62,407 bases of DNA from Candidatus Daviesbacteria bacterium (GCA_003519445.1 DOWS01000046.1:1-62407); one strand, 5' to 3'. Numbered from the stretch's first letter, positions 9,440 through 62,407 are shown. Notes: generated by a model from the sequence alone, not told the origin. Numbers and translations are program-made.

Positions 9440-9454
9440 TATAATTGTTAAATG
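9440..9454 (+). promoter_or_regulatory. TATAAT box 6 nt upstream of the ATG at 9452; possible leaderless start of the long glycan operon
   Basis: The sequence ggTATAATtgttaaATG has no SD in between. The -35 is only weak (TTGCCA with a 19-nt spacer). Confidence 0.3.
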
Positions 9455-10954
9455 AGGTTTATTTTTAAATATAAATGGGGGATAGTCGTTGGCCTGGCAA
9501 TTATTGCTTTATTTTTTTTACTCCGTTTGCCCAATTTAACTTTGCAGCCTATTTTTGCCGACGAGGCTATTTATATCCGCTGGGCCCAGGTGATGAGAGC
9601 CGAGCCAACCCTGCGGTTTCTACCTTTATCCGATGGTAAAACCCCTCTTTTTATGTGGGCTATGATGCCTTTTCTGAAAGTATTTGAAGATCCTTTATTT
9701 GCCGGCAGGTTTTTATCTGTGGTAAGTGGATTTGTTACGCTTTTGGGAGTGTTTATGCTGACAAGAAAAGTATTTAATTTAAAAGCTGCTTTTTGGGCAA
9801 GCTTACTTTACGCGATAGTTCCTTATACGGTTTTTTTTGACCGGATGGCTTTAGTTGATTCCATGCTTTCTGCTTTTACTGTTTGGGCCCTGTATTTTGC
9901 CCTGTGGCTTGCAAGATCCCAAAGATTGGATATTTCTATGATTTTAGGATTTATTCTTGGGGGAGCGTGGCTTACCAAAACTCCGGCTGTTTTAAACCTG
10001 TTGCTTTTACCCGTATCCATACTGGCCTTTAAAAAAACAAAAGTAGAAAAGCATGCTTTTTTAAAACTTTTTTTGTTTTGGGCAGTGGCTATATTTATAG
10101 CATTGGCTATGTATAACCTCTTGCGGTTGGGGCCTAACTTTCATTTGCTTTCTTCCAGAAATGCCGACTATGTTTTTTCACCTCTTGAACTTGTAGGTAG
10201 GCCTCTTGATCCTTTTATTCCTCATTTTCATGATATTTCCGACTGGTTTCCCAAACTTTTAACTCTACCAGTATTGATTTTTTTGATAGGCGGAATAATT
10301 GAGGTTTTTATGGAAAAGAATAGAAAAGGATTGGTAGTTTTGCTGTGGGCTTTGATACCGCTGTTTTTGGCAATGGTATTTCTCCGGACTTTTACTGCTA
10401 GATACTTACTTTCCTCCATACCATTGCTTTTAATTTTTGGGGGATATTGTATTGAAGGGATAATAAAGTATTTAAAAAAAACAAAGGCATTAAGCGGAAA
10501 TTCTTTTTTGATACCTGGAGGACTTTTCCTGCTTTTAATGTATCCCGCAACACAGTTTAATTATCAACTTTTGACAAATCCCCCGCCGACATTTTTGCCA
10601 CAGGAGGAGAGGCTAGGTTATTTTGAACAGTGGACAGCAGGTTATGGCTTCAAAGAAATTGCCCGGTTTCTGATTGAACAAAAAACAAAAGGCTTGGTGG
10701 TTGTTGGTACAGAAGGCTTTTTCGGCACATTGCCGGATGGGCTCTATATTTATCTTGATAAATCCAATATTTCAGTTGTTGGCAGCCATGCTACAATTTC
10801 CGCCCAAGTCAGAAATGCTGCCAAAGATCATTTAACTTTCTTTGTGGGGAATAAAAGCAACCTGAAAGGTTCTGTTTCAGGGGTAGAGTTGATCAAAGAA
10901 TATCCCAAGGTTGGCTCTGATGCCACTGTTTTGTACAAAGTAGTGCCACGGTAA
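9452..10954 (+). CDS. GT-C membrane glycosyltransferase, GT39/ArnT-like (PMT_2-type)
   Basis: 500 aa and polytopic. The acidic first-loop motif FADEAIYIRWAQ sits after TM1, with the usual ArnT-like helix pattern. Confidence 0.8.
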   Translation: MRFIFKYKWGIVVGLAIIALFFLLRLPNLTLQPIFADEAIYIRWAQVMRAEPTLRFLPLSDGKTPLFMWAMMPFLKVFEDPLFAGRFLSVVSGFVTLLGVFMLTRKVFNLKAAFWASLLYAIVPYTVFFDRMALVDSMLSAFTVWALYFALWLARSQRLDISMILGFILGGAWLTKTPAVLNLLLLPVSILAFKKTKVEKHAFLKLFLFWAVAIFIALAMYNLLRLGPNFHLLSSRNADYVFSPLELVGRPLDPFIPHFHDISDWFPKLLTLPVLIFLIGGIIEVFMEKNRKGLVVLLWALIPLFLAMVFLRTFTARYLLSSIPLLLIFGGYCIEGIIKYLKKTKALSGNSFLIPGGLFLLLMYPATQFNYQLLTNPPPTFLPQEERLGYFEQWTAGYGFKEIARFLIEQKTKGLVVVGTEGFFGTLPDGLYIYLDKSNISVVGSHATISAQVRNAAKDHLTFFVGNKSNLKGSVSGVELIKEYPKVGSDATVLYKVVPR

Positions 10955-10959
10955 TTAAG

Positions 10960-12597
10960 ATGAAAAAAACTCTTTTAATTTTATTTTTAATAACTTTGCC
11001 GTCTCTTATTTCTTTTTTTAACACCCAATTTTTTTACACCCAGGATTATATATTTATAGCCCGGCTGCAGCAGATGAGCAAAGCTTTATCTGATGGTTAT
11101 TTTCCTGTCCGCTGGGCAGGCGATCTCCGTTTTGGCGAACCCCTTTTTAATTTTTACGCCCCCCTCCCCTATTATCTGGGAGCTTTGATAAAACTTTTAG
11201 GTTTTAACTATATTTGGGTGGCAAAAATACTTTTTATTTTATCAAGCTTTTTATCTGCCGTAACAATGTATCTTTTGTGCCGGAAACTTTTTAATCAAAA
11301 ATCTGCATTTTTGGCAACTGCCCTTTACATATGGGCTCCTTATAGGGCAGTTGATCTTTATGTAAGAGGTGCCTTGTCCGAGGCTTTTGCTTTTGTCTTT
11401 TTCCCGCTGATTTTTTATGCCTCGCTGCTTTTATCCCAAAAAATCACTTTGAGAAGGATTTCTTTTCTTTCTATTTCCCTGGCAGGTTTATTCCTGACGC
11501 ATAATGTGACAACCTTAATCTTTTTACCATTTTTATTTTTATGGTGGTTGTATTTGTGGATAAAACAAAAAAACCGGAGATTAATTCTGCACTTTTGCTC
11601 CTCATTGGTATTAGGTTTGGGATTATCAGCAACTTTTCTTCTTCCGGCAGTTTTTGAAAGAGGGTTTATCCAGACAAAATATTTGCTGGTAGGATATTTT
11701 GATTTTAGGGCTCATTTTGTGGCATTTTACCAGTTTTTCTCAACATTCTGGGGGTACGGGTCATCGCTATGGGGGCCAATAGATGATATGTCGTTTCAAG
11801 TGGGCTTAGCCCATTGGGTAGCAATGCTGTTTGCTTTGGTTGTCGGGTTTATTAAACGAAGCGATAAAAAAATATTACTACTTACTTCGTTTTTGTTTTT
11901 CAGTTTCTTTTTCTCTATTTTTTTGCAGCATAACAAATCAGCCTTTTTATGGGAAGCGATTCCTTTAATGGCTTTTATCCAGTTTCCCTGGAGATTTCTG
12001 GCAATTTCAATTTTTATTGTTTCTTTGTTCGGTGCGGTAGCCCTAAATCATTTAAAATGGAAGCCTAACATTATTTTTTTTATTGCACTTGCTGCAGTAA
12101 TCCTAATTAATTTTAATTATTTTAAACCAAGGAACTTTGTAGAAGATTCTTTTTTTGCCAAGTTTTTAAATACGGACAGCACGCACCGGGGAGTGGATTT
12201 GACCAAAGATTATTTTCCAATCTGGGTAAAATTTGACAGGGTAGAATATTTTCCAACTCCAAGGGCAAATAGCGGAGAAATTGAAGTTTTAAGTTTTGAA
12301 CAAAAAACAGCCAAAGCAAAAGGGGAGATTAAGGTTTTATCAGACGCTTTGGTAGAAGTGCCTATTACTTATTTTCCCGGCTGGGAAGTTAAGGCGAATG
12401 GCCTAAATATAAAATTGCAAGAACCTTCTTTGCAGGGACTGATTACTTTTGAGCTTCCCAAGGGGGACAACAGGATAGATTTGGTATTAAAAGACACTCC
12501 TGTTAGAATAATAGGTAATATTTTAAGTTTAACAAGTGCCGCAGCGCTCCTTATTTTTTTAGGATATGCCAAATTTAAATATGCTAAATCTAATTAA
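10960..12597 (+). CDS. polytopic membrane protein of the 'PTPS-related'/COG5617 type (putative GT-C)
   Basis: 545 aa. The YTQDYIFIARLQQMSKALSDGYFPVRWAGDL..GEPLFNFYAPLPYYLGA loop is followed by many TM helices and a C-terminal beta domain. Confidence 0.7.
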   Translation: MKKTLLILFLITLPSLISFFNTQFFYTQDYIFIARLQQMSKALSDGYFPVRWAGDLRFGEPLFNFYAPLPYYLGALIKLLGFNYIWVAKILFILSSFLSAVTMYLLCRKLFNQKSAFLATALYIWAPYRAVDLYVRGALSEAFAFVFFPLIFYASLLLSQKITLRRISFLSISLAGLFLTHNVTTLIFLPFLFLWWLYLWIKQKNRRLILHFCSSLVLGLGLSATFLLPAVFERGFIQTKYLLVGYFDFRAHFVAFYQFFSTFWGYGSSLWGPIDDMSFQVGLAHWVAMLFALVVGFIKRSDKKILLLTSFLFFSFFFSIFLQHNKSAFLWEAIPLMAFIQFPWRFLAISIFIVSLFGAVALNHLKWKPNIIFFIALAAVILINFNYFKPRNFVEDSFFAKFLNTDSTHRGVDLTKDYFPIWVKFDRVEYFPTPRANSGEIEVLSFEQKTAKAKGEIKVLSDALVEVPITYFPGWEVKANGLNIKLQEPSLQGLITFELPKGDNRIDLVLKDTPVRIIGNILSLTSAAALLIFLGYAKFKYAKSN

Positions 12598-14281
12598 ATC
12601 CCATAAAGTATTTACTATTGGTTTGATATTAACCCTGTCTTTGTTTTGGCCGCTTTTTTGGGCCCCGTTTTTTTCACATCATGACGATGTTCAAATTATC
12701 AGGCTTTACGAGATGGACAAGTGTATCAAGGATGGGCAAATTCCTTGCCGATGGGTGCCTGATTTAGGCGGTTTGTACGGTTACCCTATTTTTAACTACT
12801 ACGCCCCTCTTCCATATTATGTTGGTGAAATTTTTTATTTGATGACAGGCAGCCTGATTTTTTCCGTTAAGATGATGTTTGTCTTGCCTTTTGTTGGTTC
12901 CTACATATTTATGTTTCTTTTGGCCAGAAAATTTTGGGGAAAACTAGGAGGAAGTCTATCGGCAATTTTCTATAGTTTTGCCCCATACCATGCGCTTGAT
13001 TTTTATGCGAGGGGAGCCATGGGGGAGATGTGGGCTTTAATGGTTTTTCCGGCTTTGCTGTGGAGTTTTGTCAGAATGGGGGAGAAAACCTGTATTATAA
13101 ATCTAACTGTTTCTTCTTTATTAACTGCTTTCCTGATCACTTCCCATAATCTCTCCGCCATGTTATTTCTTCCTATACTTTTAATCTGGATTTTCATTTT
13201 GATGTTAAAAGCAAAAACCAGGAAATTTTTTCTTTATAGCATTCTTGCTATTTTGTTGGGAGTTTGCATTTCTGCTTTTTATCTTTTTCCAATGATATTT
13301 GAGAAGAATTTGGTGCATGTTGATACAACAACTTATGGATATTTTTCTTACACGGAACATTTTAAAGGATTTTCTAAATTACTGGAGAGGTCTTGGGGAT
13401 ATGGATCTTCCATCAGGGAAGTGCCCGGGGGAGAAAGAGACGGGTTGTCTTACCAGATTGGCTGGGTTCATCTTTTGGGCTGGGCTATTGCAATATATGC
13501 AGCCGTAAGGCTATGGCGTCCAAAGCGCTGGTTAGCTGTAGCGATAATTTTTTCCTCAATTCTTATAGCTTTAAGTATGTATATGATTAATCCCCGGTCG
13601 GTGTTTATCTGGAAATTTGTTGAACCAATAAAATTTCTGCAGTTTCCCTGGAGATTTTTATTAATTGTGAGCTTTTTTATTTCTTTTATTTCAGGAAGCG
13701 CAGTTTTAGTTTTAAAAAACAAGAAAATTTTGATTGCCCTAATTGTTTTGGTTGTGGCATTAAATTTTCTCTATTTCAGGCCGGAAAAATTTATTAATGT
13801 TACGGAAAAAGAACTTTTGTCAGGGGAATATTGGGATAAGCAAATTAAAAGATCTATTTTTGATTATTTGCCTATTTTTGCCAAGGAACCCCCGGCAGAA
13901 CTTGCCAAAGAGAGGTATCAAATTTTAACAGGAGAAACAAAAATAATTGATCTTAAAGAAGGCACTAACTGGTTTAACTTTAAGGCAGAAACCACCACCC
14001 ATACCATCATCCGCCTTTCCCAATATTATTTCCCTGACTGGAGGATAAAAGTTGACGGCAAGGAAGTGCCAATAGAATACAAAGATAATACTTTGGGTTT
14101 AATGACAATTATTTTAGGGAAAGGGAGCCACCAGATAAGCGGAAGATTATATGATACTCCTGTGAGAGTTGTTTCCAATTTTATCACTACGGTGACTTTT
14201 ATAGTTTTGGCTGTTGTGTTCATGTTCCAGATTAAGAGGATTAAAAAATGGCTTTTATACTATAGAAAAAGAATAGATTAA
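12566..14281 (+). CDS. paralogue of 10960..12597 (PTPS-related/COG5617-type membrane protein)
   Basis: 571 aa. It shares HHDDVQIIRLYEMDKCIKDGQIPCRWVPDLGG..GYPIFNYYAPLPYYVGE, FLQFPWRFL and C-terminal YFPGW/YFPDW motifs with its neighbour. Confidence 0.7.
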   Translation: MPNLNMLNLIKSHKVFTIGLILTLSLFWPLFWAPFFSHHDDVQIIRLYEMDKCIKDGQIPCRWVPDLGGLYGYPIFNYYAPLPYYVGEIFYLMTGSLIFSVKMMFVLPFVGSYIFMFLLARKFWGKLGGSLSAIFYSFAPYHALDFYARGAMGEMWALMVFPALLWSFVRMGEKTCIINLTVSSLLTAFLITSHNLSAMLFLPILLIWIFILMLKAKTRKFFLYSILAILLGVCISAFYLFPMIFEKNLVHVDTTTYGYFSYTEHFKGFSKLLERSWGYGSSIREVPGGERDGLSYQIGWVHLLGWAIAIYAAVRLWRPKRWLAVAIIFSSILIALSMYMINPRSVFIWKFVEPIKFLQFPWRFLLIVSFFISFISGSAVLVLKNKKILIALIVLVVALNFLYFRPEKFINVTEKELLSGEYWDKQIKRSIFDYLPIFAKEPPAELAKERYQILTGETKIIDLKEGTNWFNFKAETTTHTIIRLSQYYFPDWRIKVDGKEVPIEYKDNTLGLMTIILGKGSHQISGRLYDTPVRVVSNFITTVTFIVLAVVFMFQIKRIKKWLLYYRKRID

Positions 14282-14285
14282 ATTT

Positions 14286-15731
14286 ATGGAAGATTTATCT
14301 GTAGAGTTGGTAAAAAACAGAGCTATTAAAGGAGCTGCAATACTGACTGTCAGAAATATCCTAATTCAGGCAGTATCTTTTTTTTCAATTGCTCTTTTAA
14401 CTTTTCTTTTAGAGCCGCAGGATTACGGCGTATTTTTTATAGTTTCCGCTGTTGTTAGTTTTTTGGCATATTTTGGCGATATAGGTTTTGCCGCCAGCTT
14501 GATACAAAAAAAAGAAAAATTGCAGGATATTGAACTGCGGACTATTTTTACCGCTCAACAAATACTGGTGTTTTCTCTTGTCAGTATAGTTTTTCTGCTT
14601 ACCCCGGTTATTAGAAATTTCTATCATTTTGACAATGGGGCAATATATCTTCTTTGGGCCCTTGCTTTTTCGCTTGTTCTTTCATCATTAAAAACTATAC
14701 CTACAGTATTGTTAGAGAGAAAACTGGAGTTTAATAAATACATTATTCCTCAAATCCTGGAAGTTTTAGTTTTTAATATTACTGCGGTATTTTTTGCCTG
14801 GAGGGGCTTTGGAGTTACAAGTTTTACAATAGCCGTCATCTTGCGGGGATTTGTAGGTTTGGTGTCAACTTATATAGTTTCACCGTGGATCCCGAGGTTT
14901 GCATTCTCTGCCTCCTCCTTTAAATCTTTGTTAAAGTTTGGAATTCCTTATCAAGCAAATACTTTTCTTGCAATGATCAAAGATGATGGCATGACGCTAT
15001 TCTTGGGTGGGACGCTGGGTTCATCCGGAATAGGGCTTTTGGGATGGGCTCAAAAATGGGCTTTTGCGCCTCTGCGTTTTTTTATGGATCAGGTTATCAA
15101 AGTTACTTTTCCTGCTTTTTCCCGTATGCAGGATAATAAAAAAGAGTTATCCAATGCCTTATCAAAATCAATTTTTTATATTTGTCTTTTGGTATTTCCG
15201 GCCCTTACTTTTTTGATACTGGTTGCTCCGTCTTTGGTGGAGGTAATTCCAAAGTATAGCAAATGGAGCCCGGCGCTTTTGGCGCTGTCGTTTCTCTCCA
15301 TTACTTCCGCCTTAGCCGCGGTAGCAACCCCTTTAACTAATGCCTTCAATGCAATTGGAAAAATATCAGTAACTTTTAAATTAATGATTATGTGGACTGT
15401 GCTCACTTGGCTTTTTGTGCCGTTTTTATCTTCTGTATTTGGAGTAAATGGCGCGGCAGCGGGTTTTGCCCTGGTAGGACTTAGTTCGGTGGTAGTGATG
15501 TTTGTTGCCTTAAAATATGTTGAGATAAATTATTTGAAAATTGTTGGAAAGCCATTGCTTGTTTCAGTAATTACAGGTGGGGTAGTGTTGGTAATAAGAT
15601 CTTCTTTGCAGGTTTCATGGCAACAGGTTGCTTTTATGTGCGCTGGTGGATTAGTAACATATTTTACAACTGTTCTTATCCTAGAACCCAAACTTTTAAT
15701 TTTTCTTAAAATAAAAAAAAGAAATGCTTAA
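14286..15731 (+). CDS. MOP-superfamily oligosaccharide flippase (Wzx-like)
   Basis: 481 aa with about 12-14 TM helices. The N-terminus KNRAIKGAAILTVRNILIQAVSF is typical of Polysacc_synt flippases. Confidence 0.85.
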   Translation: MEDLSVELVKNRAIKGAAILTVRNILIQAVSFFSIALLTFLLEPQDYGVFFIVSAVVSFLAYFGDIGFAASLIQKKEKLQDIELRTIFTAQQILVFSLVSIVFLLTPVIRNFYHFDNGAIYLLWALAFSLVLSSLKTIPTVLLERKLEFNKYIIPQILEVLVFNITAVFFAWRGFGVTSFTIAVILRGFVGLVSTYIVSPWIPRFAFSASSFKSLLKFGIPYQANTFLAMIKDDGMTLFLGGTLGSSGIGLLGWAQKWAFAPLRFFMDQVIKVTFPAFSRMQDNKKELSNALSKSIFYICLLVFPALTFLILVAPSLVEVIPKYSKWSPALLALSFLSITSALAAVATPLTNAFNAIGKISVTFKLMIMWTVLTWLFVPFLSSVFGVNGAAAGFALVGLSSVVVMFVALKYVEINYLKIVGKPLLVSVITGGVVLVIRSSLQVSWQQVAFMCAGGLVTYFTTVLILEPKLLIFLKIKKRNA

Positions 15732-51537: not shown

Positions 51538-51538
51538 A

Positions 51539-52036: not shown

Positions 52037-52039
52037 TTT

Positions 52040-55639: not shown

Positions 55640-55693
55640 ATGATATTATTGGCAAACATTATCACCAAATCAAAAATTTGGCAAGCAAAAATA

Positions 55694-56587
55694 TTAATAA
55701 TTTTTCTCTTTCTTGTTTTTAGCAATAATTAACCCAATGGGGGACTGATTAATCAAATACAAAAAAATCTGCCAAAGAAGCACTATCATCAGTATTGGTG
55801 AGGCAATTACTAAGTAAAGCAGGGAAACATTTTTTTTAAACAAGGCTGAAGTATTAATTCTTAAAACTGCCAAAATACTGGCCACAAAACCACCTAATGA
55901 GTATTCAGGGGCTATGACACTTTGGCAAGAGAGTATCTTAAGATTATTATTTTTAAGTACTTTAATGAGTCCTTTTATCGTAAGATGAGATAAATGTCTG
56001 GGGGGGTCCAGATGAAACCAATATTTTGAAAATATTTTTGATTCTAAACTGTTATATCTGGGAAATTCAATCATAATAAGACCGTTTTTATTTAGAAGCG
56101 AGCTTGCTTTTTTAATATATTCTGCAGAATTTGAAATATGCTCCAGACTTTCCCAAAAAACCACGGCATCGAATTTTTGTTTTATTTGCCACTTAATAAA
56201 GTCTTTTTTAATGACATCTGGGTTTTTAATTTCAGCACCCGGGATGTCTAAATTAATTACCTTAAATTGATTGGATAAAGATCTACCGAATATTCCTTCG
56301 CCAGAGCCTACATCCAAAATTTTCCCTGTACTTAAGTATTTTTTTATCCATTTTTTTCTACGGGCTTGGAATAATTGATATAACATTTCTTTTAATATTC
56401 CGGTTACGCCGGGACTTTTCCAATAAATATCAGAGTAATATTTTCCAATATTTTTAGGTACAGGATAGGTAAATCCTAGAAAACAGTTGTTGCAATAAAG
56501 AATATGAAATTTTTGGTTGAGTGTAGGTAGAGTTAGGGTAGTATTTGTTTGACACTGCGGGCATCTTAGTTTATTCTTTGATTTCAT
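55694..56587 (-). CDS. class I SAM-dependent methyltransferase with an N-terminal Zn-ribbon and C-terminal TM anchor
   Basis: It has CPQCQT...YCNNCF, ILDVGSGEGIFG and a C-terminal hydrophobic tail. I prefer the ATG at 56587, because the tracker start at 56617 is a TTG. A C7 tract (coding strand) lies at 56000-56006. Confidence 0.8.
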   Translation of the reverse strand: MKSKNKLRCPQCQTNTTLTLPTLNQKFHILYCNNCFLGFTYPVPKNIGKYYSDIYWKSPGVTGILKEMLYQLFQARRKKWIKKYLSTGKILDVGSGEGIFGRSLSNQFKVINLDIPGAEIKNPDVIKKDFIKWQIKQKFDAVVFWESLEHISNSAEYIKKASSLLNKNGLIMIEFPRYNSLESKIFSKYWFHLDPPRHLSHLTIKGLIKVLKNNNLKILSCQSVIAPEYSLGGFVASILAVLRINTSALFKKNVSLLYLVIASPILMIVLLWQIFLYLINQSPIGLIIAKNKKEKNY

Positions 56588-56616
56588 CTCGTGGGATTTA
56601 TTATATAATAATTTCA

Positions 56617-58491
56617 ATGAACAAAACTATTAAATTAGTTCAAAATACGGTATTGCTTGCATTATTAATAGTTACGGTTGCTATTTCCAACTATTATCTG
56701 TTAAGTGATTCGCTGACTTTGGGTTTTAAGCCGGATGATTGGATTCTATATTTTTCCTATAAGGCTCTTGGCACGAATCCTCTTTCTCAAATTGTATCGG
56801 TTTGGGCTGAAAGGGGAATATATACCACATACCAGGTTTACTATATGGGTTTTTTGGATAGCCTTTTTGGCTTGAATTATTATTCATTTCACTTTGTTAA
56901 CTTAATCTTTAAGATTGTTGCCACCATAAGTTTATACCCTTTAATTCTCGTACTGTCTAAAAACAAGTTACTGGCAGTTTTATCCGTAATTCTGTTTGCT
57001 ATTAGTCATTCAACAGTAGGCCCCTTAGAGCTTGTTGTTAAGGGGAGCGATTATTTAGCCATCATTTGGATGAACCTTTTTTTGATAGTGTACTATCTGA
57101 TAATTGTAGATAAGCTGGTTGGATTAAAATACCACCTTCTTTTATTTATTCTTTTTATTCTATCTTTGGCTTTTTCACCAATTAGAATTTTCCCACTTAT
57201 AGTAATTCCACCTATGGTTGAAATATTTTTGATATTAAAACACTTTGATTGGACTGCAATTAAAAAGTCTTTTATCAGGCTTGTAGTTCTTTATTGGCCC
57301 TTTATTGTTTTAATTCTATATTCTCCCATTTCCGTATTAGGGAATGCCGGAGGTCCTTTTGGAGTCTTTGAACAAGTTTCAAAAGGTAATTGGTTTTATG
57401 TTTTAGCACCAATTTCAGGAATAGGTTACACTTTCATAGCCAATGATTATTGGGGTAAAATTTTCGGTTTGTTAATAACAGATAATTTTAAAAATTATCT
57501 GTATTTTTTATCAGGAGGACCCACAATTATTTGTGGAGCATTAACTGCAGCAGTAGCTTGGTCAAGAATTCCAAAACGGAAACTCCTTTTTTTTATTCTG
57601 ACTACCGCATTGAATTTTATTCTGCAAATACTTTTTTTCTTTATTGCTTTTCACCACTTAGGAATTACTTCTTCAAATGTAAATTATGATCCCTCAAATC
57701 TTTATTCAGTAATTTTTGGAGGATATATAGTGGTATCCGGTTTTATGGTATTTCTAAATTGGTTAAAATGGGGGGGGAGCGATAGAGTTTTAGCTTTACT
57801 TTGGATTGGTTCAGTTTTTTTGTTTATTTTTACTTTCCTGACATGGGTTTTTGCACCCTTGGGGACAGGATTTAGCAGTACAAGCTATTATTTGGTGGTT
57901 GCCTCAATTGGATCTTCCCTTATGATTGCAACTTTTTTAGTGTCAATCTATGAAAAGATAAAGCATCGGTTAAAATTGTTAGCTTTTTTACCATTCTTGA
58001 TTATTATCTTGATTTTTGGAATGAGTAGTCACGAGATCCGGCAGAGGTTTTCCAGTCTAAATAAGGATGGCCGTGGTGCGGTGGGACAGATTATAATGCA
58101 AGAGGAAGCAAGACGGGTTTTGAAAGATTACAAGGTGGGAGATTTAATCTTGGTTTATTTTGATACTTCGGATATTAGCGGTAATGGGCAGTTCTATTCA
58201 GAGGGATTTCTGACAAGCCTTCCTTTTTTTATGCATTTTCGTGATAACAAAATAGTTGACGGTTGCATTGGAGTAATCTTTGAAGATAGTAACATGGTAG
58301 AATTAAGGAAATTGGTTCAAGCTCAAAATGGAATAAAAGGATTTAATTACCCGAGTTTATGTATAACTGAAGGAAAAAGTAGCTTAAGAACCTTATTTTT
58401 TACTCAAGATCACTTTTATGCATTCAAAATTAAGGATAGAAAACTGATTGATATTAAAGAGAGTGTTTTGAATCAGTTACATGTTAAGTAA
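56617..58491 (+). CDS. polytopic membrane protein, putative GT-C of an unrecognised family ((D/E)DW first-loop motif) with a C-terminal soluble domain
   Basis: I prefer the ATG at 56617 (MNKTIKLV...). The FKPDDWILYFSY motif follows TM1, and there are more than 10 TM helices. It is a paralogue of 59252..61141 and contains a G8 tract at 57770-57777. Confidence 0.65.
   Translation: MNKTIKLVQNTVLLALLIVTVAISNYYLLSDSLTLGFKPDDWILYFSYKALGTNPLSQIVSVWAERGIYTTYQVYYMGFLDSLFGLNYYSFHFVNLIFKIVATISLYPLILVLSKNKLLAVLSVILFAISHSTVGPLELVVKGSDYLAIIWMNLFLIVYYLIIVDKLVGLKYHLLLFILFILSLAFSPIRIFPLIVIPPMVEIFLILKHFDWTAIKKSFIRLVVLYWPFIVLILYSPISVLGNAGGPFGVFEQVSKGNWFYVLAPISGIGYTFIANDYWGKIFGLLITDNFKNYLYFLSGGPTIICGALTAAVAWSRIPKRKLLFFILTTALNFILQILFFFIAFHHLGITSSNVNYDPSNLYSVIFGGYIVVSGFMVFLNWLKWGGSDRVLALLWIGSVFLFIFTFLTWVFAPLGTGFSSTSYYLVVASIGSSLMIATFLVSIYEKIKHRLKLLAFLPFLIIILIFGMSSHEIRQRFSSLNKDGRGAVGQIIMQEEARRVLKDYKVGDLILVYFDTSDISGNGQFYSEGFLTSLPFFMHFRDNKIVDGCIGVIFEDSNMVELRKLVQAQNGIKGFNYPSLCITEGKSSLRTLFFTQDHFYAFKIKDRKLIDIKESVLNQLHVK
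57770..57777. repeat. homopolymeric G8 inside 56617..58491
   Basis: The sequence aaaatGGGGGGGGagc encodes W-G-G (tgg ggg ggg). Confidence 0.9.
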
Positions 58492-59239
58492 AATGATACA
58501 TTATAAAAATAAAGGTTCTGAAGTTATAGTGGTAATTCCTGCATATAATTCAGAGAAAACAATTGAAAAAGTATATAAGAATATACCCACAGGATTAGTT
58601 GATGAAGTTATCATAGTTGATGACGGATCAAAGGATAATACCGTAGCAGTTATAAAAGAATTAGGTATAAAGCCGATTATTCATACAAAAAACTTGGGGT
58701 ATGGAGCAAACCAAAAAACTTTATATACTAATGCAATAAATTCAGGGGCAAAATATGTAATTATGCTTCACCCTGACGGCCAGTATGATCCCCGGGACCT
58801 GCCAAAATTTATTAATGCTTTAAAAGCCGGTAAAGGAGACCTGATTTTAGGGTCGCGTTTTTTGTCAAAGGGGGTTAACGAAACTCCGGGATATAAATCA
58901 ATTTCGTTAAAATTGATAGCAGTACTTTTTAATCTAGTGTTGGGTTTAAATTTATCTGAAGTTAATACAGGATACCGAGGTTATACTGCTAAATTATTAA
59001 GAGTGATTCCCTTTATGAAAAACGGCAATGGATATATTTTTGATCCCCAACTTATTATTCAAGCGGTTTATTTCGGTTTCAAAATTGCCGAAGTGCCGGT
59101 TTCCAAAAAATATAACAAAGAGGCCATCTCGCCCAATTTTTCTAAGTCTATTCAGCACGGGTTTGAGAATATGCAGCTTTTAATAGAATATATTCTGCAC
59201 CGTCTGAAATTGAAACAGGCTACTTTTTTAACAGCTTAA
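58481..59239 (+). CDS. GT2 polyprenol-phosphate sugar synthase-like (DPM1/ArnC-type)
   Basis: 252 aa with VVIPAYNSEKTI, VDDGSKDNT, NLGYGANQ and LHPDGQYDP. Confidence 0.85.
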   Translation: MLSKMIHYKNKGSEVIVVIPAYNSEKTIEKVYKNIPTGLVDEVIIVDDGSKDNTVAVIKELGIKPIIHTKNLGYGANQKTLYTNAINSGAKYVIMLHPDGQYDPRDLPKFINALKAGKGDLILGSRFLSKGVNETPGYKSISLKLIAVLFNLVLGLNLSEVNTGYRGYTAKLLRVIPFMKNGNGYIFDPQLIIQAVYFGFKIAEVPVSKKYNKEAISPNFSKSIQHGFENMQLLIEYILHRLKLKQATFLTA

Positions 59240-59251
59240 TTTAACAGGTAT

Positions 59252-61141
59252 ATGAAAATGAAATTGTGGATATTTTTGTTCTTAATCGGTTTAGTTTTTT
59301 TTATCCAATTTACCCTCTTACAACCAATCATTCAATACAGATTATTTGTAGAAGATTGGACTATGCTTACAGGTTATAAATATCTCTATCCTAACCCCTT
59401 TTTAAGATTTGTAGATGTTTGGACGGGCAGTGGTGGCCTGCACACTACTGCACAAATATATTATATAGGGATATTATCCGATTTTTTGGGCTATAATTAT
59501 CGAGCTTTTCATGTTATCAATGTAATATTAAAAGGCATAGCTACTTTGACACTTTTTCCATTGGTATTGATTCTGTTTAGAAATAAACTGCTTGCTTTTT
59601 TGACTACTATTTTCTACGCAATTAGCGCCGGCTCGGCAGGACCTTTGATAATGGTAATTAAAGGCGGGGAGTATTTGGCGGTATCAGCATTAAATATATT
59701 CTTAATTGTTTATTATTATGCGATTTCTAAAAAGTCGATTTTTCTTGTTGCTCTTTCGTCTTTTTTATTTCTTCTTACTTTTCTTCTTTCCCCATCAAGG
59801 ATGTTCCCAATTTTTTTTCTGGTTTTACTCGTAGAAATATTTTGGTTAGTAAAGTCTGGAAGTCTTAAGAATTTAAAGTTTTCCCTATTAAGACTTTTAT
59901 GTTTTTATATTCCGGTTTTTTTGATTGCAAGATCTGCTCCTGTTTCTTCATGCTGCCCATTTGCTTCCCGCCCGCCTATTATTTTAAAAGAAATTCTTGA
60001 CGGTAATTGGCATAATCTCCTTGTTCCATTCGCCGGAATCGGTTATTCGCTTTTGACTACGGATTTTTGGAAATATTTTGGTTTTATTGATATGGCAACT
60101 TTCATGGATTTTGGCAAGTATCTGTTTTTGCTTTTCAGGAGCTCTGCAATTTTCTTTTTTGTAACTATATTGATTTCAATAATAATTTCAAAAAAGCCCG
60201 GTAAATTTTTCATTTTAGTTTTTGCCACAAATTTTATTCTGGATGTTTTAATGTTTTTTGTAGCAAGTCACCATTTTTATATACCAGATAAGCTTAGATC
60301 GTTTATGGATCCTTCTTTCTATCTAATTACCAAATACCCGGCATTAGTGGCTCTTTATGTATTTACTGTATCCTTTTTTGCATTTTTAGAATGGAAAAAA
60401 TCCGAAAGCAATAAACCTTTACTTATGGCTTTGTGGGTAGGCCCGGTTTTTTCGGTTGCTTTCTTGTGGCCAACTTGGTTAGTTATAGGGACATTGATAG
60501 GTTATTATACCAGTGTTAGTTGGTACTTAATTATACCCCCAATAGGCCTTTCGTTATTTATATCTGCGGTTCTAGTTTTGTTCTACGAGAAATTAAAATA
60601 TACAAGTGCGTTGAGGAGTATTGCCATATTAGTTATATGTGCCATAATTTTCGTTTTATATAAAACAAGCGGGATGGAAATTACCAGAGCTTTTATGGGT
60701 ATAAATCCGCAAAGAGTCAAGATTACCGATCAAGGATTACTGCAGGATAAATTACTGGCAAAAATCGGCGGCCGCTATAAAAGCGGAAACCTTTTTGTCT
60801 ATTTTGATATAGAAAATGATGTTAAATATTCTAAACAGTATTACCAGGACGCACTGTCTTTAGATCATTTTGAATATTGGATGCATATTAGAAGATCAGA
60901 TGGTTTGGGTGGTTGCGTTTCAGGTATAAGCAATAAGGATGTTTTAAGAAAAGCTGTTAAATCTAGTGACGCGAAAGTGGAATTTGTTTACAAAGGAATT
61001 TGTATGGAGATGGATAAGAAGGAAGTCCAAAAGTCTGACGATGCTATAGTTTACGATGTTAATGATTTCTACGCCTATAAATTAGAAAACGGAGAGTTTA
61101 TAGATATTAAGGAACAGACGCTTAAGGAGATAAATCCTTAA
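59252..61141 (+). CDS. polytopic membrane protein, paralogue of 56617..58491 (putative GT-C, (D/E)DW family)
   Basis: 629 aa with FVEDWTMLTGY after TM1. Shared blocks include YY(M/I)G.L......NY..FH..N...K..AT..L(Y/F)PL.L.L..NKLLA and the C-terminal FYA(F/Y)K......IDIKE. Confidence 0.65.
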   Translation: MKMKLWIFLFLIGLVFFIQFTLLQPIIQYRLFVEDWTMLTGYKYLYPNPFLRFVDVWTGSGGLHTTAQIYYIGILSDFLGYNYRAFHVINVILKGIATLTLFPLVLILFRNKLLAFLTTIFYAISAGSAGPLIMVIKGGEYLAVSALNIFLIVYYYAISKKSIFLVALSSFLFLLTFLLSPSRMFPIFFLVLLVEIFWLVKSGSLKNLKFSLLRLLCFYIPVFLIARSAPVSSCCPFASRPPIILKEILDGNWHNLLVPFAGIGYSLLTTDFWKYFGFIDMATFMDFGKYLFLLFRSSAIFFFVTILISIIISKKPGKFFILVFATNFILDVLMFFVASHHFYIPDKLRSFMDPSFYLITKYPALVALYVFTVSFFAFLEWKKSESNKPLLMALWVGPVFSVAFLWPTWLVIGTLIGYYTSVSWYLIIPPIGLSLFISAVLVLFYEKLKYTSALRSIAILVICAIIFVLYKTSGMEITRAFMGINPQRVKITDQGLLQDKLLAKIGGRYKSGNLFVYFDIENDVKYSKQYYQDALSLDHFEYWMHIRRSDGLGGCVSGISNKDVLRKAVKSSDAKVEFVYKGICMEMDKKEVQKSDDAIVYDVNDFYAYKLENGEFIDIKEQTLKEINP

Positions 61142-62127
61142 TTATCTCGTTCCGGCCCTTTGCCGGATCCTTCCAGTGTTTTCGTCATTGTCTCTTGCCA
61201 TCCCTTAAGATATTGTAACGATCTTTGCAATTCTCTTTGAAAACTTTCTTCTTTTTGGAGATTAAAACCAAATATATTCAGATGATTTTGTAAAAGTTTA
61301 AGATACTGCCTTTCTGTTTCAAAGCGTAATCCCCATTCTTTAGGATTTTTGTTGCTTGCGGCTCCAAGAGTAGTCATATAAGCTTGTTGTAATAAAGAAT
61401 AATCTCCTGTAATTTTAGCGTCTAACGACATAATAAATTGTAACGGTGTTTCAAATGTCAATACATTATGAGTTTCAGCAGATTTGATAGTTGCTCCTCC
61501 CTCTTTTGCAATAATAATCCATTTGGGTTGGGGGAAACTAATTGGTTCCATCTCTGGAGAGCGTCTTAGTATTTCTTCTACCACATCAGCCGACATAACA
61601 TGAGCAGTACTGCCAATATCTAGCGGTATTCCAAATGCTTTACTATATAATCCTTTGAACTCCGTCTCTGTATGGACTAAAGGGGGATGATGAGCTAAAA
61701 AATCTTTTAGACTCCTGCGGAGATTTAAGTAGCTACCGGTATCGCCAATATTTGCTGCCATTTCTGCCATTTCTGACAAATCCTTTGGATAATACTTTGC
61801 GGCAACAACAATTCTGTCCCAATCAGTATATTGAATTTTACTAATTCCTAATTCCCTGGTAACAGCAAGTGCTTTGCGCAAGGCATTCAGGTGATTATTT
61901 TCAATTTCGTTGTCAACGATGGGGCTTGTTAAATCAGGCTCTGTAATATAAATTCCCCGTTCTCCTTTAGATCTAAGCAATTCTTTTACAAGAGGATCTG
62001 TTGTTGCAGTAATACTGAAAACCCACCCGCGGTAATTTGACAAAACAACATCCACTGCCTGTTGCAGAGGTTTTAATAGCGCTCCTTTTGGATCATGTAG
62101 CGTTGAGGTTAATAGGACATTTTGCAT
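61138..62127 (-). CDS. hypothetical soluble protein (no family recognised)
   Basis: This is a long 329-aa ORF with composition more G+C-rich than the membrane genes. I could not recognise any diagnostic motif. Confidence 0.55.
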   Translation of the reverse strand: MQNVLLTSTLHDPKGALLKPLQQAVDVVLSNYRGWVFSITATTDPLVKELLRSKGERGIYITEPDLTSPIVDNEIENNHLNALRKALAVTRELGISKIQYTDWDRIVVAAKYYPKDLSEMAEMAANIGDTGSYLNLRRSLKDFLAHHPPLVHTETEFKGLYSKAFGIPLDIGSTAHVMSADVVEEILRRSPEMEPISFPQPKWIIIAKEGGATIKSAETHNVLTFETPLQFIMSLDAKITGDYSLLQQAYMTTLGAASNKNPKEWGLRFETERQYLKLLQNHLNIFGFNLQKEESFQRELQRSLQYLKGWQETMTKTLEGSGKGPERDN

Positions 62128-62132
62128 AATTT

Positions 62133-62407
62133 TTACCCATTGAGCATTTGATTCTTAAATCTTTTTAATGCTTCATCTATGTTAGTGATATGGAATCCAA
62201 GAGACTCTATTTTTTCTGTACTTAACCAGGTATTTTTGGGTCTTGGCGCAACCCTTTTTCTTGATAAATTTAAAAATGAAATTGGTTTTATTAAAGATGT
62301 GTCCAGATTCATTGTATTGGCAATTTTCTGGGCAAATCGCAAAGGAGTTATATGCTCATTGGGGGAATAATTACCTGCTACATGGAACTGGTTTCAAAAC
62401 TATAGTT
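62133..62407 (-). CDS. dTDP-4-dehydrorhamnose reductase (RmlD)-like, C-terminal part; 5' end lies outside the window
   Basis: The minus-strand frame stays open to the window edge (...FHVAGNYSPNEHITPLRFAQKIA...). The tail RVAPRPKNTWLSTEKIESLGF resembles RmlD 'R.A.RP.ns.L...K'. Confidence 0.65.

Follow-up and report, generated by a model that had tools for sequence, protein, structure and literature searches.

The DNA from position 9452 onwards in the window (the whole stretch of 62,407 nucleotides analysed here) is probably one large, mostly co-directional locus for cell-envelope glycan assembly that would work in two layers, and it is an enlarged form of a cluster kept in 76 Microgenomates loci. 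The source genome is that of Candidatus Daviesbacteria RIFCSPLOWO2_02_FULL_38_18 (CPR, Microgenomates), which bears out the CPR host conjectured in an earlier interpretation made from the sequence alone (the sequence-only reading). This host is a groundwater bacterium with a tiny genome, and the 53-kb glycan cluster probably takes up about 5% of it.

The coding fraction of the locus is 99.5%, and 17 GT-C-like genes span 28.4 kb, or 54% of the interval 9452-62127. Between 21507 and 47218, 21 plus-strand genes follow one another with gaps of at most 37 nt, an operon-like packing, and over the initial 38 kb of the locus the sole minus-strand gene is 20026 (genes are named here by their first coordinate and lie on the plus strand unless marked (-)). 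Recomputed ORF coordinates agree with those of the sequence-only reading; ATG starts lie 3' of the longest-ORF start at 41004 and 56617, the latter start being used in metagenome gene calls too, and 45053 has a TTG start. Eight contigs, assembled from independent samples of ENA and JGI, repeat the gene order, and it is matched on a 192-kb contig of a 90%-identical relative, in which the locus runs on beyond the window edge. Taking into account that the paralogues in the window are just 21-38% identical to each other, their duplications must be ancient.

The synteny comparison that the sequence-only reading had proposed reveals a conserved core formed by a Wzx flippase, a DUF3863-fused GT-C, two GT2s and a GT4. 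Wzx adjoins the B-type GT-C in 59 of the 76 loci, the GT2-GT2-GT4 trio appears in 56, and both elements occur together in 49. The lineages recovered were Daviesbacteria, Woesebacteria, Shapirobacteria and Amesbacteria, that is, every named Microgenomates lineage returned, and the synteny reaches complete genomes. A mere strain oddity was rejected on the grounds of this spread. The number of GT-C-like genes per 22 kb in the related loci has a median of 6.5 (range 1 to 12), and a GT2p-PMT_2 adjacency is found in 27 of the 76. Both this Microgenomates-wide core and the continuation of the locus past the window go beyond the sequence-only reading.

That reading had counted about 17 polytopic GT-C proteins, and the count stands: 12 exceed Pfam gathering cut-offs (eight PMT_2, two PTPS_related/YfhO, one GT87 and one PIG-V-like), four lacking a Pfam model are backed by AF2 models and Foldseek, and one is a truncated PMT_2-like core detected by hhalign. 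All 17 candidates have 6-13 TM segments in a crude hydropathy scan, and the acidic first-loop motif ascribed to all of them follows TM1 in 16.

The first of the families without a Pfam model, the "B-domain" or B-type GT-Cs, includes what is, to judge from synteny, the central enzyme of the conserved cluster. This fusion protein (15724-19137), recognised by paralogy, profile match and synteny, comprises an N-terminal TM segment, a DUF3863-like ectodomain (approximately residues 22-477) and a B-type GT-C (residues 511-1134); its N-terminal half is 40% identical to 43038 and its C-terminal half 33% identical to 21507, and such fused forms are common within the B-type family. The stand-alone paralogue (21507-23522; AF2 pLDDT 92) carries HDGxWH, invariant in its family, within the first of the conserved outer loops and has a predicted DPY19/OST-like fold, its model matching in Foldseek DPY19 (E 4e-9) as well as AglB, STT3, PglB, AftD/AftA and ArnT, while its C-terminal domain resembles 3vu0, the globular C-terminal domain of AglB (Foldseek probability 1.0, TM 0.52). 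The DW family is formed by 56617-58491 (motif KPDDW) and 59252-61141 (AF2 pLDDT 91), 34% identical across about 600 residues, so that the fold of the former is taken from the model of the latter. In the 59252 family alignment, D35-W36 is kept in at least 90% of rows, and Cys555 and Cys584 of the C-terminal domain are invariant; its model matches STT3, PglB, DPY19, AglB, Pmt4, ArnT and EmbB with Foldseek probability 1.0. The B and DW models match GT-C enzymes at this same probability, with TM scores that are moderate (0.35-0.48). Neither Pfam nor NCBIfam has a match for the C-terminal half of 15724, 21507, 56617 or 59252, and profile-profile comparison of both families with the PMT_2 paralogues was not significant; it is predicted structure, then, that would place them among the GT-Cs. 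Membership of GT66 was rejected, since the STT3 Pfam model fails to match these proteins even at E 1 and a WWDYG-like motif is absent from all window proteins and from the 81 members aligned for the two families.

The DUF3863-like ectodomain shared by 15724 and 43038, which the sequence-only reading missed, matches 3lm3/DUF3863 (PDB 3lm3, E 1.2e-7 for 43038), and PF12979 is matched by 20 of 31 homologues of 43038. Besides this ectodomain, the membrane protein 43038-45056 has two more TM segments and a C-terminal domain containing Cys. Its family keeps at least 46% identity across the best 120 matches, and the B-type GT-C at least 46-47% across its own best 120; such strong conservation argues for a core role of both in the envelope.

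Among the genes with Pfam support, all eight proposed as GT39/ArnT-like score above gathering thresholds for PMT_2 (ArnT/PMT-like) or PMT. Two are distant paralogues: 9452-10954 (PMT_2 53 bits, PMT 24.5 bits; motif FADEA; at least 6 TM segments) and 20026-21480 (-) (PMT_2 48.8 bits; 10 TM segments). The others form a six-member paralogue clade consisting of 23528-25129 (PMT_2 39.8 bits; YGDEL), 26295-27917 (PMT 40.8 and PMT_2 41.1 bits; NIDEV), 31816-33270 (PMT_2 38.4 bits; NGDEA), 33287-34936 (PMT_2 43.4 and PMT 38 bits; NWDEV), 34933-36498 (PMT_2 39.2 and PMT 37.5 bits; YWDEA) and 36476-38044 (PMT_2 48.4 bits; SWDEA). The two PTPS-related proteins, 10960-12597 (PTPS_related 36.6 bits, with a YfhO C-terminal match of 29.1 bits) and 12566-14281 (29.3 bits), are 31% identical paralogues, both above the gathering score. 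The gene read as DUF2029-like (30717-31823), of PimE type, matches GT87 with 30.7 bits (cut-off 25 bits), with an additional weak PIG-U match, and the PIG-V-like protein (39853-41007; 7 TM segments) matches Mannosyl_trans2 (PF04188) with 38.3 bits (cut-off 22.4 bits). The seventeenth candidate, 25126-26295, had rightly been called a degenerate copy: its alignment to the PMT_2 paralogue profile (hhalign probability 84%, E 8e-6) begins only at column 81, so that TM1 and the first loop with its acidic motif are left out, and it has no C-terminal domain either. It is probably non-catalytic, and in 10 related loci there are ORFs that match it best, flanked in 8 of these by a PMT_2 gene on either side.

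The cytoplasmic glycosyltransferases and the flippases proposed earlier all find Pfam matches. The conserved trio comprises a soluble GT2 without TM segments (27955-28848; Glycos_transf_2 E 8e-21), a second GT2 (28850-29641; E 8.5e-21) with one C-terminal hydrophobic segment at residues 220-238 according to the crude scan, and a GT4 of GT-B fold (29638-30720; Glycos_transf_1 E 6e-24), all three being supported by synteny as well. A further soluble GT2 (38041-38805; E 8.5e-24) is 32-33% identical to the two GT2s of the trio, and GT4s are also encoded at 38802-39872 (Glycos_transf_1 E 4e-26) and 45053-46162 (Glycos_transf_1 E 4e-37; Glyco_transf_4 E 8e-16). The MOP/Wzx-type flippase of the core is 14286-15731 (Polysacc_synt_3 E 1e-54; NCBIfam MOP flippase 148 bits), and a second MOP/Wzx-like protein is found at 41004-42275 (Polysacc_synt E 1e-20; O-glycosylation flippase model 38.6 bits).

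Four other GT2s most closely resemble polyprenyl-phosphate-sugar synthases, as had been suggested, all of them scoring far below NCBIfam equivalog cut-offs. These are 47204-47920 (-), TM-less and AglJ/Dol-P-hexose-synthase-like (TIGR04182 AglJ 115.6 bits; Dol-P-hexose transferase 73 bits); 54905-55639 (-), TM-less and PpgS/AglJ/DPMS-like (PpgS 65 bits, AglJ 60 bits; Pyrococcus DPMS PDB 5mlz, E 1.3e-6), the cassette partner of the DW GT-C 56617; 58481-59239 (PpgS 88.6 bits, AglJ 85 bits), 38% identical to the former and immediately upstream of the DW GT-C 59252; and the TM-less 42235-43041 (Glycos_transf_2 E 2e-22), whose likeness to a synthase is weak and ambiguous, PgfS being its best NCBIfam model (52 bits), with ArnC (40.7 bits) lower down. 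None of the four has a C-terminal membrane anchor in the crude hydropathy scan, the single hydrophobic segment of 58481 (residues 140-158) lying within the catalytic domain.

A nucleotide-sugar toolkit was likewise recognised. It includes an SDR epimerase/4,6-dehydratase (46187-47218; Epimerase E 2e-45; best NCBIfam dTDP-glucose 4,6-dehydratase, 132 bits, below cut-off); an NDP-sugar 6-dehydrogenase (49262-50590; TIGR03026 300 bits, cut-off 189.8 bits), nearest at equivalog level to UDP-ManNAc dehydrogenase and also matching the AglM model; an SDR epimerase/dehydratase/decarboxylase-like protein (50587-51537; Epimerase E 7e-59; GalE, LegB, Fcl and UDP-xylose-synthase models, each below cut-off); an NDP-hexose C-methyltransferase-type enzyme (52805-54049; Methyltransf_14 E 5e-58, Methyltransf_13 E 2e-21); an RmlD-like 4-keto-sugar reductase (54024-54908 (-); RmlD_sub_bind E 7e-45; TIGR01214 139.8 bits, below cut-off); and a SAM methyltransferase with two predicted TM segments (55694-56587 (-); Methyltransf_23 E 3e-19), called as 297 aa in metagenomes. 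The GHMP kinase 47992-49086 (-) (GHMP_kinases_N; ThrB models 113 and 81 bits, below cut-off) appears homoserine-kinase-like and is not an obvious sugar kinase. The remaining genes encode a single-TM protein (19121-20065; weak beta-propeller-like DUF5050 match, 22.5 bits, below cut-off) with counterparts in loci L036, L037 and L043; a small DUF5667 protein anchored by 1 TM segment (51539-52036; 35.9 bits); and two soluble proteins without Pfam or NCBIfam matches. The first of these, 52040-52735 (-), is syntenic in the relative and has counterparts in L001, L002 and L005; the second, of 329 aa (61138-62127 (-)), has no counterpart at that position in the 90%-identical relative, and in L005 an SDR is found there. 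It is this L005 SDR, the gene after the DW gene, that 62133-62390 (-) matches with 74% identity over 81 aa, as a C-terminal remnant of an RmlD-like SDR gene broken by stop codons close to the contig end.

The components that the sequence-only reading had been unable to recognise, namely an initiating phosphoglycosyltransferase (PGT), Wzy, Wzz, an ABC exporter and a ligase, are also missing here: no such family was matched by window ORFs of at least 100 aa, nor in the next 10 kb of the 90%-identical relative, nor, in the 76 related loci, up to about 10 kb from the gene for the B-type GT-C. Nor is there a GtrA-type small flippase for polyprenyl-phosphate monosaccharides among the ORFs of 50-99 aa, which were checked separately. 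Larger genes overlap all of these but two, both located at the very 3' edge of the window: 62133-62342 (-) belongs to the SDR remnant, and the other is 62179-62370 (+). The contrast drawn earlier with classical O-antigen or capsule loci holds as regards PGT, Wzy and Wzz, although the conserved Wzx/GT2/GT2/GT4 core is more "classical" than had been allowed. Wzx proteins are usually assigned to diphosphate-linked oligosaccharides, which together with the lack of a GtrA-type flippase counts against the two-layer scheme proposed below. E. coli O-antigen clusters depend on a wecA located elsewhere, so the absence of a PGT from the cluster does not prove a PGT-free pathway.

Taking gene content, folds, paralogy, synteny and taxonomic spread as what has been observed, we infer all substrates, the carrier lipid, the order of the steps and the acceptor in the following scheme. 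In a first layer, to which synteny and folds point, the trio (27955-30720) would assemble, on the cytoplasmic side of the membrane, a short oligosaccharide attached to a lipid carrier; the flippase 14286 would then flip it, and the B-type GT-C 15724 and its paralogue 21507 would act on it outside, either by en bloc transfer to an acceptor or by polymerisation. The conserved core suggests such a cytoplasmic lipid-linked-oligosaccharide branch, and, as no initiating enzyme for it was found, this layer is left without its first step. In a second layer, suggested by family membership, the dehydrogenase, SDRs, RmlD-like reductase and C-/O-methyltransferases would supply cytoplasmic nucleotide sugars, with which the four TM-less DPMS/AglJ/PpgS-like GT2s would charge polyprenyl phosphate with single sugars. 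Once flipped, these would be used by the GT-Cs of the PMT_2 (eight), PTPS/YfhO-like (two), GT87-like, PIG-V-like and DW (two) families, every enzyme contributing a single type of sugar or linkage to the glycan outside. Our committed guess is that the product would be a branched surface heteropolysaccharide, lipid- or wall-anchored, by a logic like that of lipomannan/arabinogalactan assembly, and it may also be moved onto surface proteins. This logic has precedents in CsbB/GtcA/YfhO, which are multi-component systems for transmembrane glycosylation (PMC5836110, PMC8035078), and in the assembly of LM/LAM by GT-C arrays (PMC3123699, PMC12041525). A lone locus could equally house several independent systems.

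A possible but rather unlikely explanation is that the locus serves chiefly to glycosylate proteins, in which case the B-type GT-C would be an oligosaccharyltransferase that transfers the flipped oligosaccharide to surface proteins (for example S-layer proteins or pilins) and the PMT_2, DW and other GT-Cs would draw on polyprenyl-phosphate sugars to O-glycosylate proteins or lengthen protein-bound glycans. Its logic would be that of the archaeal Agl pathway, which requires no PGT: AglJ initiates on a monophosphate carrier, soluble GTs extend, the Wzx-like AglR flips, AglB transfers, and AglD/AglS add the last sugar outside. The PGT-free surroundings of the cluster in 76 loci fit this, as do the nearness of 47204 to AglJ (115 bits), the AglM match of the dehydrogenase, the "O-glycosylation flippase" model matched by Wzx, and the fact that protein O-mannosyltransferases belong to PMT_2 and PMT families. 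DPY19, AglB, STT3 and PglB are the top structural matches of 21507, whose C-terminal domain resembles that of AglB, and STT3 and PglB come first for 59252; however, Foldseek ranking among similar-sized GT-C_A enzymes is not function-specific, the glycan- or lipid-acting AftA/AftD, Emb and ArnT match too, and the sequences fall outside GT66. Furthermore, no conserved candidate acceptor protein was found in the cluster, and eight diverged PMT_2 paralogues would suit a multi-linkage polysaccharide more than protein O-monoglycosylation.

It is less probable still that independent decoration modules, each a GT2 synthase plus a GT-C in the manner of Gtr, ArnC/ArnT or CsbB/YfhO, lie side by side and modify a polymer made elsewhere, be it peptidoglycan, a teichoic-acid-like polymer or an Und-PP-linked Wzx/Wzy polysaccharide, with its PGT and polymerase encoded elsewhere in the genome. 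PGTs often lie outside glycan clusters, as wecA does, and a content that varies between genomes, from 1 to 12 GT-C-like genes in a locus, is expected of swappable decorations. PTPS_related/YfhO- and PMT_2-type GT-Cs with GT2s are indeed the hallmark of such modules (PMC5836110, PMC8035078), but 17 GT-Cs against only four synthase candidates do not allow a simple 1:1 arrangement, no GtrA/GtcA-type flippase accompanies them, and the core, which stays together in 49 of the 76 loci, is packed tightly with other GT-Cs. As for an artefact of assembly or binning, or a heap of decaying paralogues without coherent function, there is next to no chance of it: the window is a metagenome-assembled contig, with a copy lacking its catalytic loop (25126) and a gene remnant at the contig end, yet the order is shared by the eight independent-sample contigs, the relative's 192-kb contig and complete genomes, the ORFs are long and intact, the paralogues are well diverged, and even the truncated copy recurs in related loci in a largely constant position. 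This reading is already essentially refuted.

Returning to the two-layer assembly of a surface glycan, DAGK_prokar and PAP2 genes found in some related loci are candidates for recycling of the carrier lipid. In line with the claim that the cluster is undescribed, no description of it, nor of the B and DW GT-C families, was found in the full-text literature searched. The kinds of components are already known, and it is the system and its two GT-C families that are apparently new. The cluster and its smaller versions in the related lineages point to an undescribed surface glycan.

The glycan locus extends from 9452 to 62127, a stretch in which the ORF map places 41 genes at 99.5% coding density, in agreement with the gene coordinates of the sequence-only reading. 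Neighbouring genes mostly overlap or lie a few bases apart, and a run of 21 plus-strand genes between 21507 and 47218 has gaps of 37 nt at most. The GC content ranges from 0.31 to 0.40, with no sharp change where the locus begins, and no tRNA or Rfam element that could have caused a contig break or regulated the locus was found in the window. Taking the 0.77-0.92 Mb contigs and the complete genomes of relatives as a yardstick, this cluster of more than 53 kb represents roughly 5% of the genome.

Seventeen polytopic proteins of this locus (named here by the start coordinates of their genes) had been proposed to be GT-C-like, and this number is upheld. By a crude Kyte-Doolittle scan, all of them have 6-13 TM segments; an acidic motif (DE, EE, DD or D) follows TM1 in 16, with 25126 as the exception, and 12 score above the Pfam gathering thresholds. 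These 12 are the PMT_2/PMT genes 9452, 20026 (minus strand), 23528, 26295, 31816, 33287, 34933 and 36476; the PTPS_related genes 10960, which also has a YfhO C-terminal match, and 12566; the GT87 gene 30717; and the PIG-V-type Mannosyl_trans2 gene 39853. The GT-C relationship of the other five comes from predicted structure, in the case of the B and DW families, and from hhalign, in the case of 25126; the Pfam and AlphaFold/Foldseek searches therefore support, rather than refute, a GT-C assignment for most of these proteins. Of the PMT_2 genes, six fall into one paralogue clade with identities of 21-35%, and 9452 and 20026 are more distant. In all eight, a DE or EE motif directly follows TM1, and the clade has D33-E34 as an invariant pair.

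The ORF 25126-26295 aligns with the PMT_2 clade profile from column 81 on only (hhalign 84%, E 8e-6), so that neither TM1 and the acidic loop nor the C-terminal domain is present; its tie to the GT-C superfamily comes from hhalign only, at that same 84%. A decaying pseudogene can be ruled out, since the ORF is intact and recurs in 10 related loci where it is the best window match, flanked by two PMT_2 genes in 8 of them (besides the window, such ORFs are recorded in L012, L014-L017, L023, L038, L050 and L061). 25126 is thus a conserved, probably non-catalytic relative of PMT_2, which could be acting as a partner or scaffold subunit.

Two families fall outside the existing domain models. The B domain is found in 21507 and in residues 511-1134 of 15724 (33% identical), and the DW family consists of 56617 and 59252 (34% identical). 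No Pfam or NCBIfam match was obtained for these genes even at E 1, nor any Pfam match at E ≤1 across 37 B-family members. Searches against PDB sequences with single sequences or with the B and DW profiles gave nothing relevant, the profiles retrieving no oligosaccharyltransferase at E ≤10, and hhalign showed no significant similarity of either profile to that of the PMT_2 paralogues. AlphaFold2 models, built with 37 homologues for 21507 and 44 for 59252, reached pLDDT values of 92.1 and 91.1, respectively, with a pTM of 0.91, and consist in both cases of a multi-helix bundle followed by a C-terminal mixed alpha/beta domain. When compared with the PDB using Foldseek, the 21507 model matches DPY19 (E 4e-9, TM 0.47), AglB, STT3, PglB, AftD, AftA and ArnT, and its C-terminal domain separately matches the C-terminal globular domain of AglB (3vu0, TM 0.52). 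The 59252 model matches STT3, PglB, DPY19, AglB, Pmt4, ArnT and EmbB, with a best E of 2e-5. The Foldseek probability is 1.0 for most GT-C matches (for the 59252 model, 0.98 with ArnT and 0.69-0.90 with EmbB), and their TM values of 0.28-0.48 compare with about 0.1 for non-GT-C matches. Whole-chain matches to oligosaccharyltransferases lie at TM 0.35-0.47, those to DPY19, AftA/AftD and ArnT being comparable. Thus, there is good evidence that both families have a predicted GT-C fold, a placement made by predicted structure only that implies no specific activity; we take this fold to be of the A class in the published classification.

Membership of the STT3 family (GT66) was also considered for B and DW, and rejected. 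The WW[DN][YWF]G motif is absent from the 37 B-family and 44 DW-family sequences, a looser form is absent from all window proteins, and there is no STT3 family match, so these proteins are not STT3-family oligosaccharyltransferases. The B family has invariant HDGxWH (D136), NYH, ExxFW and PWWF motifs. In the DW family, D35-W36 is retained by 90% or more of the aligned rows, and the C-terminal domain has two cysteines that never vary. An exhaustive profile search recovered 1,722 B-family clusters at 50% identity, 855 of them with E ≤1e-30, in a stand-alone form of about 560-680 aa and an N-terminally extended form of about 1,000-1,160 aa. Another Daviesbacteria genome (L006) encodes five DW-family paralogues together with GT2s. 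Between those GT2s and the five paralogues lies an RGP-family gene (PF03214, the UDP-arabinopyranose mutase family; L006:7350-8498, minus strand), which hints at furanose sugars among the donors.

The GT2 genes 42235, 47204, 54905 and 58481 had been read as polyprenol-phosphate-sugar synthases. Their products (238-268 aa) have no C-terminal membrane anchor, and in a crude hydropathy scan a single hydrophobic segment appears only in 58481 (residues 140-158). The best NCBIfam matches of 47204, 54905 and 58481 are in the range of 60-116 bits (AglJ, PpgS, Dol-P-hexose transferase). Thus, 47204 matches AglJ with 115.6 bits and Dol-P-hexose transferase with 73; 58481 matches PpgS with 88.6 and AglJ with 85; 54905 matches PpgS with 65 and, in addition, Pyrococcus DPMS (5mlz) at E 1e-6; and 42235 gives weak matches to PgfS, PgaC and ArnC (41-52 bits). 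All four miss the equivalog cut-offs by far (115.6 versus 325 bits for AglJ, 88.6 versus 370 for PpgS), for which reason they should be called synthase-like and not members of those families. The original assignment is retained for the three proteins closest to characterised synthases, and is weak for 42235. The proteins 54905 and 58481 are 38% identical and each is encoded beside a DW gene, 58481 directly upstream of 59252 and 54905 divergent from 56617. A synthase-like GT2 is next to a PMT_2 gene in 27 of the 76 related loci, and adjoins DW genes in L006 and in a 90%-identical relative (L005). The presence of these GT2s is the sole indication that the GT-Cs may use putative polyprenyl-phosphate sugars as donors.

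Among the remaining components, the two proposed Wzx-like flippases were recognised by MOP models, 14286 by Polysacc_synt_3 (E 1e-54) and 41004 by Polysacc_synt (E 1e-20). The soluble GT2s 27955, 28850 and 38041 (29-33% identical) and the three GT4s are generic. The nucleotide-sugar toolkit described earlier is also present, comprising an NDP-sugar dehydrogenase (TIGR03026, above cut-off), two SDR epimerase/dehydratases, an RmlD-like reductase, an NDP-hexose C-methyltransferase-type protein and a membrane-associated SAM methyltransferase. A GHMP kinase gene (47992-49086, minus strand) is nearest to homoserine kinase (113 bits, below cut-off) and not to sugar kinases; its substrate might be a hydroxy-amino-acid or sugar substituent. 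The membrane protein 43038 and the N-terminal half of 15724 have in common a 450-residue ectodomain (40% identity), whose family profile matches the DUF3863 structure 3lm3 with E 1.2e-7 over about 240 positions. PF12979 (DUF3863) is matched by 20 of 31 ectodomain homologues (best E 1.8e-4), the window protein itself being unmatched, and this fold may be glycoside-hydrolase/deacetylase-like. No family could be assigned from Pfam or NCBIfam to 52040 and 61138, and 19121 is likewise without an assigned function.

The components that the sequence-only reading had failed to recognise were also missing from the domain searches. In window ORFs of at least 100 aa there is no initiating phosphoglycosyltransferase (PGT) of the WecA/MraY (PF00953) or WbaP/PglC (PF02397) type, and none was found among the recurrent or rare neighbours in the 76 related loci. 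The window gave no match to Wzy_C, O-antigen polymerase or Wzz, no ABC exporter or ligase, and no GtrA match that would indicate a small flippase of the GtrA/GtcA/ArnE-F type; in the related loci, one neighbour family, present in 4 of them, has a weak sub-threshold match to EpsG (E 4e-4). All ORFs of 50-99 aa in 9400-62407 overlap a larger gene, with the exception of two at the extreme 3' end, 62133-62342 (minus strand), which is part of an SDR remnant, and 62179-62370 (plus strand). It has to be considered that PGTs are often encoded away from glycan clusters, and therefore the lack of one here is no proof of a PGT-free pathway.

Comparison of synteny across Patescibacteria, put forward in the sequence-only reading as a check, showed that the cluster recurs. 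A scan with the B-family profile, using one genome per species, gave 119 matches, from which 76 distinct loci were kept, and their ORFs were compared with the window proteins by BLAST. The specifically named records belong mostly to Daviesbacteria, Woesebacteria, Shapirobacteria, Amesbacteria and the "Microgenomates/Patescibacteria group", and include two single chromosome-scale sequences of about 0.9 Mb from Woesebacteria, CP055307 (titled complete genome) and CP066693. About half of the 76 loci have generic or discordant taxon labels. Many cluster-bearing MAGs are titled "uncultured Gammaproteobacteria" or "Pseudomonadales", and there are single titles such as "Bathyarchaeia archaeon" (L022), "Clostridia bacterium" (L025) and "Spirochaetia bacterium" (L033); these discordant titles are probably placeholder or wrong labels, and not a sign of horizontal transfer.

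The recurrent gene order, with optional members in brackets, is (synthase-like GT2-PMT_2), one to three PTPS genes, Wzx, the DUF3863+B fusion, (B), PMT_2, GT2, GT2, GT4, (GT87) and further PMT_2 genes. Wzx adjoins a B-type GT-C in 59 of the 76 loci, the GT2-GT2-GT4 trio is present in 56, and both features occur together in 49. Per 22 kb, the loci have a median of 6.5 GT-C-like genes, and 12 at most. Taking this order and these counts into account, the window is the most expanded example found here of a clade-wide cluster. Neighbours without a homologue in the window are further PMT_2, YfhO and GT2 genes, followed by methyltransferases, DHH, NUDIX, DAGK_prokar and PAP2. DAGK_prokar (diacylglycerol/undecaprenol kinase family) and PAP2 phosphatase were seen in two scanned neighbour ORFs each, and a cluster-linked recycling of the carrier lipid is possible.

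The real locus is larger than what the window shows, since in the 90%-identical relative GCA_964625535.1 (192-kb contig), syntenic over the equivalent of 49262-61141, it runs for at least 10 kb further, with an RmlD-like SDR, a DegT-type aminotransferase, two more DW-family genes, a 765-aa protein without assignment, a GT2 and a GT4. No PGT is encoded in those 10 kb of the relative. The gene 59252 is carried by eight contigs from independent ENA and JGI samples; the four of them listed have the same gene order and end 1.2-1.4 kb beyond it, at the window edge or within about 125 nt of it. In the last 260 nt of the window (62133-62407) lies what is left of the C-terminal part of the RmlD-like SDR gene with which the continuation in the relative begins, here broken by stop codons. 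The absence of 61138 at this site in the 90%-identical relative suggests that the window ends at a point of strain variation or rearrangement.

Upstream of the glycan genes, positions 1-6133 look like a defence or mobile island, with a MazG-like gene (511-858), a 641-aa Schlafen-group-3 helicase with a weak NERD match (861-2786), RadC (2779-3498), an M78 peptidase and HTH pair (3631-4649, minus strand) and a Bro-N protein (5294-6133), the last also recurring as a neighbour in 4 related loci. The start of the locus is abutted by a gene (6623-9430, minus strand) whose 935-aa product is anchored in the membrane and has Ig-like domains and an LCAT/PGAP1-like alpha/beta-hydrolase domain. It was rejected as a locus member because none of the 76 related loci has a homologue, and it is probably outside the system.

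The PIM-LM-LAM and arabinogalactan of mycobacteria and corynebacteria are made by the GT4s PimA and PimB, Ppm1, the GT87 PimE, MptA-D and the Emb and Aft GT-Cs. The locus resembles this system in having GT4 steps on a lipid in the cytoplasm, a polyprenyl-phosphate-sugar synthase without TM segments, and an array of different GT-Cs, with a GT87-like member, extending the glycan outside the membrane; moreover, the B and DW models structurally match AftA/AftD and Emb. LM/LAM elongation itself does not require a PGT (PMC3123699, PMC12041525). However, PMT_2 dominates here, and not GT53, GT85 or GT89, no equivalog-level match to any mycobacterial enzyme exists, and the genes are gathered in one operon-like cluster whereas they are scattered in mycobacteria. 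Two Wzx flippases, the conserved GT2-GT2-GT4 block, a CPR host and the absence of any phosphatidylinositol-related gene seen are further differences.

As in the GtrA/B/C, ArnC/ArnE-F/ArnT and CsbB/GtcA/YfhO systems, GT2 synthase genes lie beside GT-C genes (58481/59252, 54905 near 56617, and 27 related loci), and PMT_2 and PTPS_related/YfhO are the Pfam families of ArnT and YfhO (PMC5836110, PMC8035078). Unlike GtrB, ArnC and CsbB, the GT2s studied here have no C-terminal TM helices, a small flippase of the GtrA/GtcA/ArnEF type is missing, 17 GT-Cs correspond to four synthases, and the GT2/GT-C pairs are embedded in a larger conserved cluster. The likeness to Wzx/Wzy O-antigen or capsule loci is limited to MOP/Wzx flippases, soluble GT2s and GT4s, and nucleotide-sugar genes, since neither the window nor the related loci have PGT, Wzy, Wzz, export or ligase domains, and GT-Cs take up more than half of the DNA here.

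N-glycosylation in Haloferax, which needs no PGT, involves AglJ, AglG/I/E, AglR, AglB, AglD/AglS, AglM and AglP. The locus has in common with it an AglJ-like GT2, soluble GT2s and GT4s, a Wzx-like flippase, SAM methyltransferases, an NDP-sugar dehydrogenase that also matches AglM, a large GT-C for which the model matches AglB, also in the C-terminal domain, and further GT-Cs as possible users of polyprenyl-phosphate sugars outside the cell. Nevertheless, there is no WWDYG and no STT3 family match, and all scores with Agl models are far below their cut-offs; the likeness to the Agl pathway in logic is a putative one.

From the conserved core, a lipid-linked oligosaccharide route can be proposed. 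GT2, GT2 and GT4 would assemble an oligosaccharide inside the cell and Wzx would flip it, whereupon the B-type GT-C together with the ectodomain partner would transfer or polymerise it outside. The four synthase-like GT2s would load single sugars, supplied by the nucleotide-sugar genes, onto polyprenyl phosphate, and the remaining GT-Cs would add these sugars outside, with a GT2/GT-C pair logic as in the Gtr, Arn and CsbB-YfhO systems (PMC5836110, PMC8035078). The number of diverged GT-Cs suggests that the glycan may contain many distinct linkages, for which LM/LAM and arabinogalactan are precedents (PMC3123699, PMC12041525). The main rival to this route is protein glycosylation with an Agl-like logic, a reading to which the DPY19, AglB and STT3 fold matches and the AglJ-like GT2 lend themselves, although such matches are not function-specific and the WWDYG motif is missing.

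Taking the lipid-linked oligosaccharide route further, a joint reading can be formulated which, as a whole, we consider unlikely. According to it, the B-type GT-C of 21507 and of the C-terminal half of 15724, from a family of about 1,700 clusters (50% identity) that lacks a Pfam model and has a DPY19/AglB-like predicted fold, would be the catalytic subunit of an unrecognised bacterial oligosaccharyltransferase or polymerase system. Its donor would be built by GT2-GT2-GT4 on polyprenyl monophosphate, free of any PGT, and flipped by Wzx, in an archaeal-style, Agl-like manner conserved across Microgenomates and needed for the CPR surface, DW being a second new GT-C family.

With genomes of about 1 Mb, CPR bacteria depend on other cells or live in attachment to them, and to our knowledge hardly anything has been established on the chemistry of their surface. 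In a 2024 study of cultivated Saccharibacteria, their glycosylation processes were called "unexplored" (PMC11623550). In the full-text literature searched, whose coverage excludes most subscription journals, neither the cluster nor its conservation among Microgenomates was found described, and the same holds for the B and DW GT-C families and for the fusion of DUF3863 with a GT-C; the nearest statements are brief mentions that Peregrinibacteria and Saccharibacteria have several copies of Dol-P-Man synthase. Every component is of a known kind; it is the cluster and its two GT-C families that were not found described.

In sum, a dense, GT-C-based glycan assembly cluster is conserved across the lineages of the CPR superphylum recovered here, and expanded in Daviesbacteria. 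It provides gene targets for research on the CPR envelope, on attachment to hosts and on recognition by phages or the immune system. It also yields two GT-C families that have confident structure models but are not covered by Pfam, together with one conserved ectodomain partner, and it offers a natural test case for whether a bacterial lipid-linked oligosaccharide pathway can run without a PGT.
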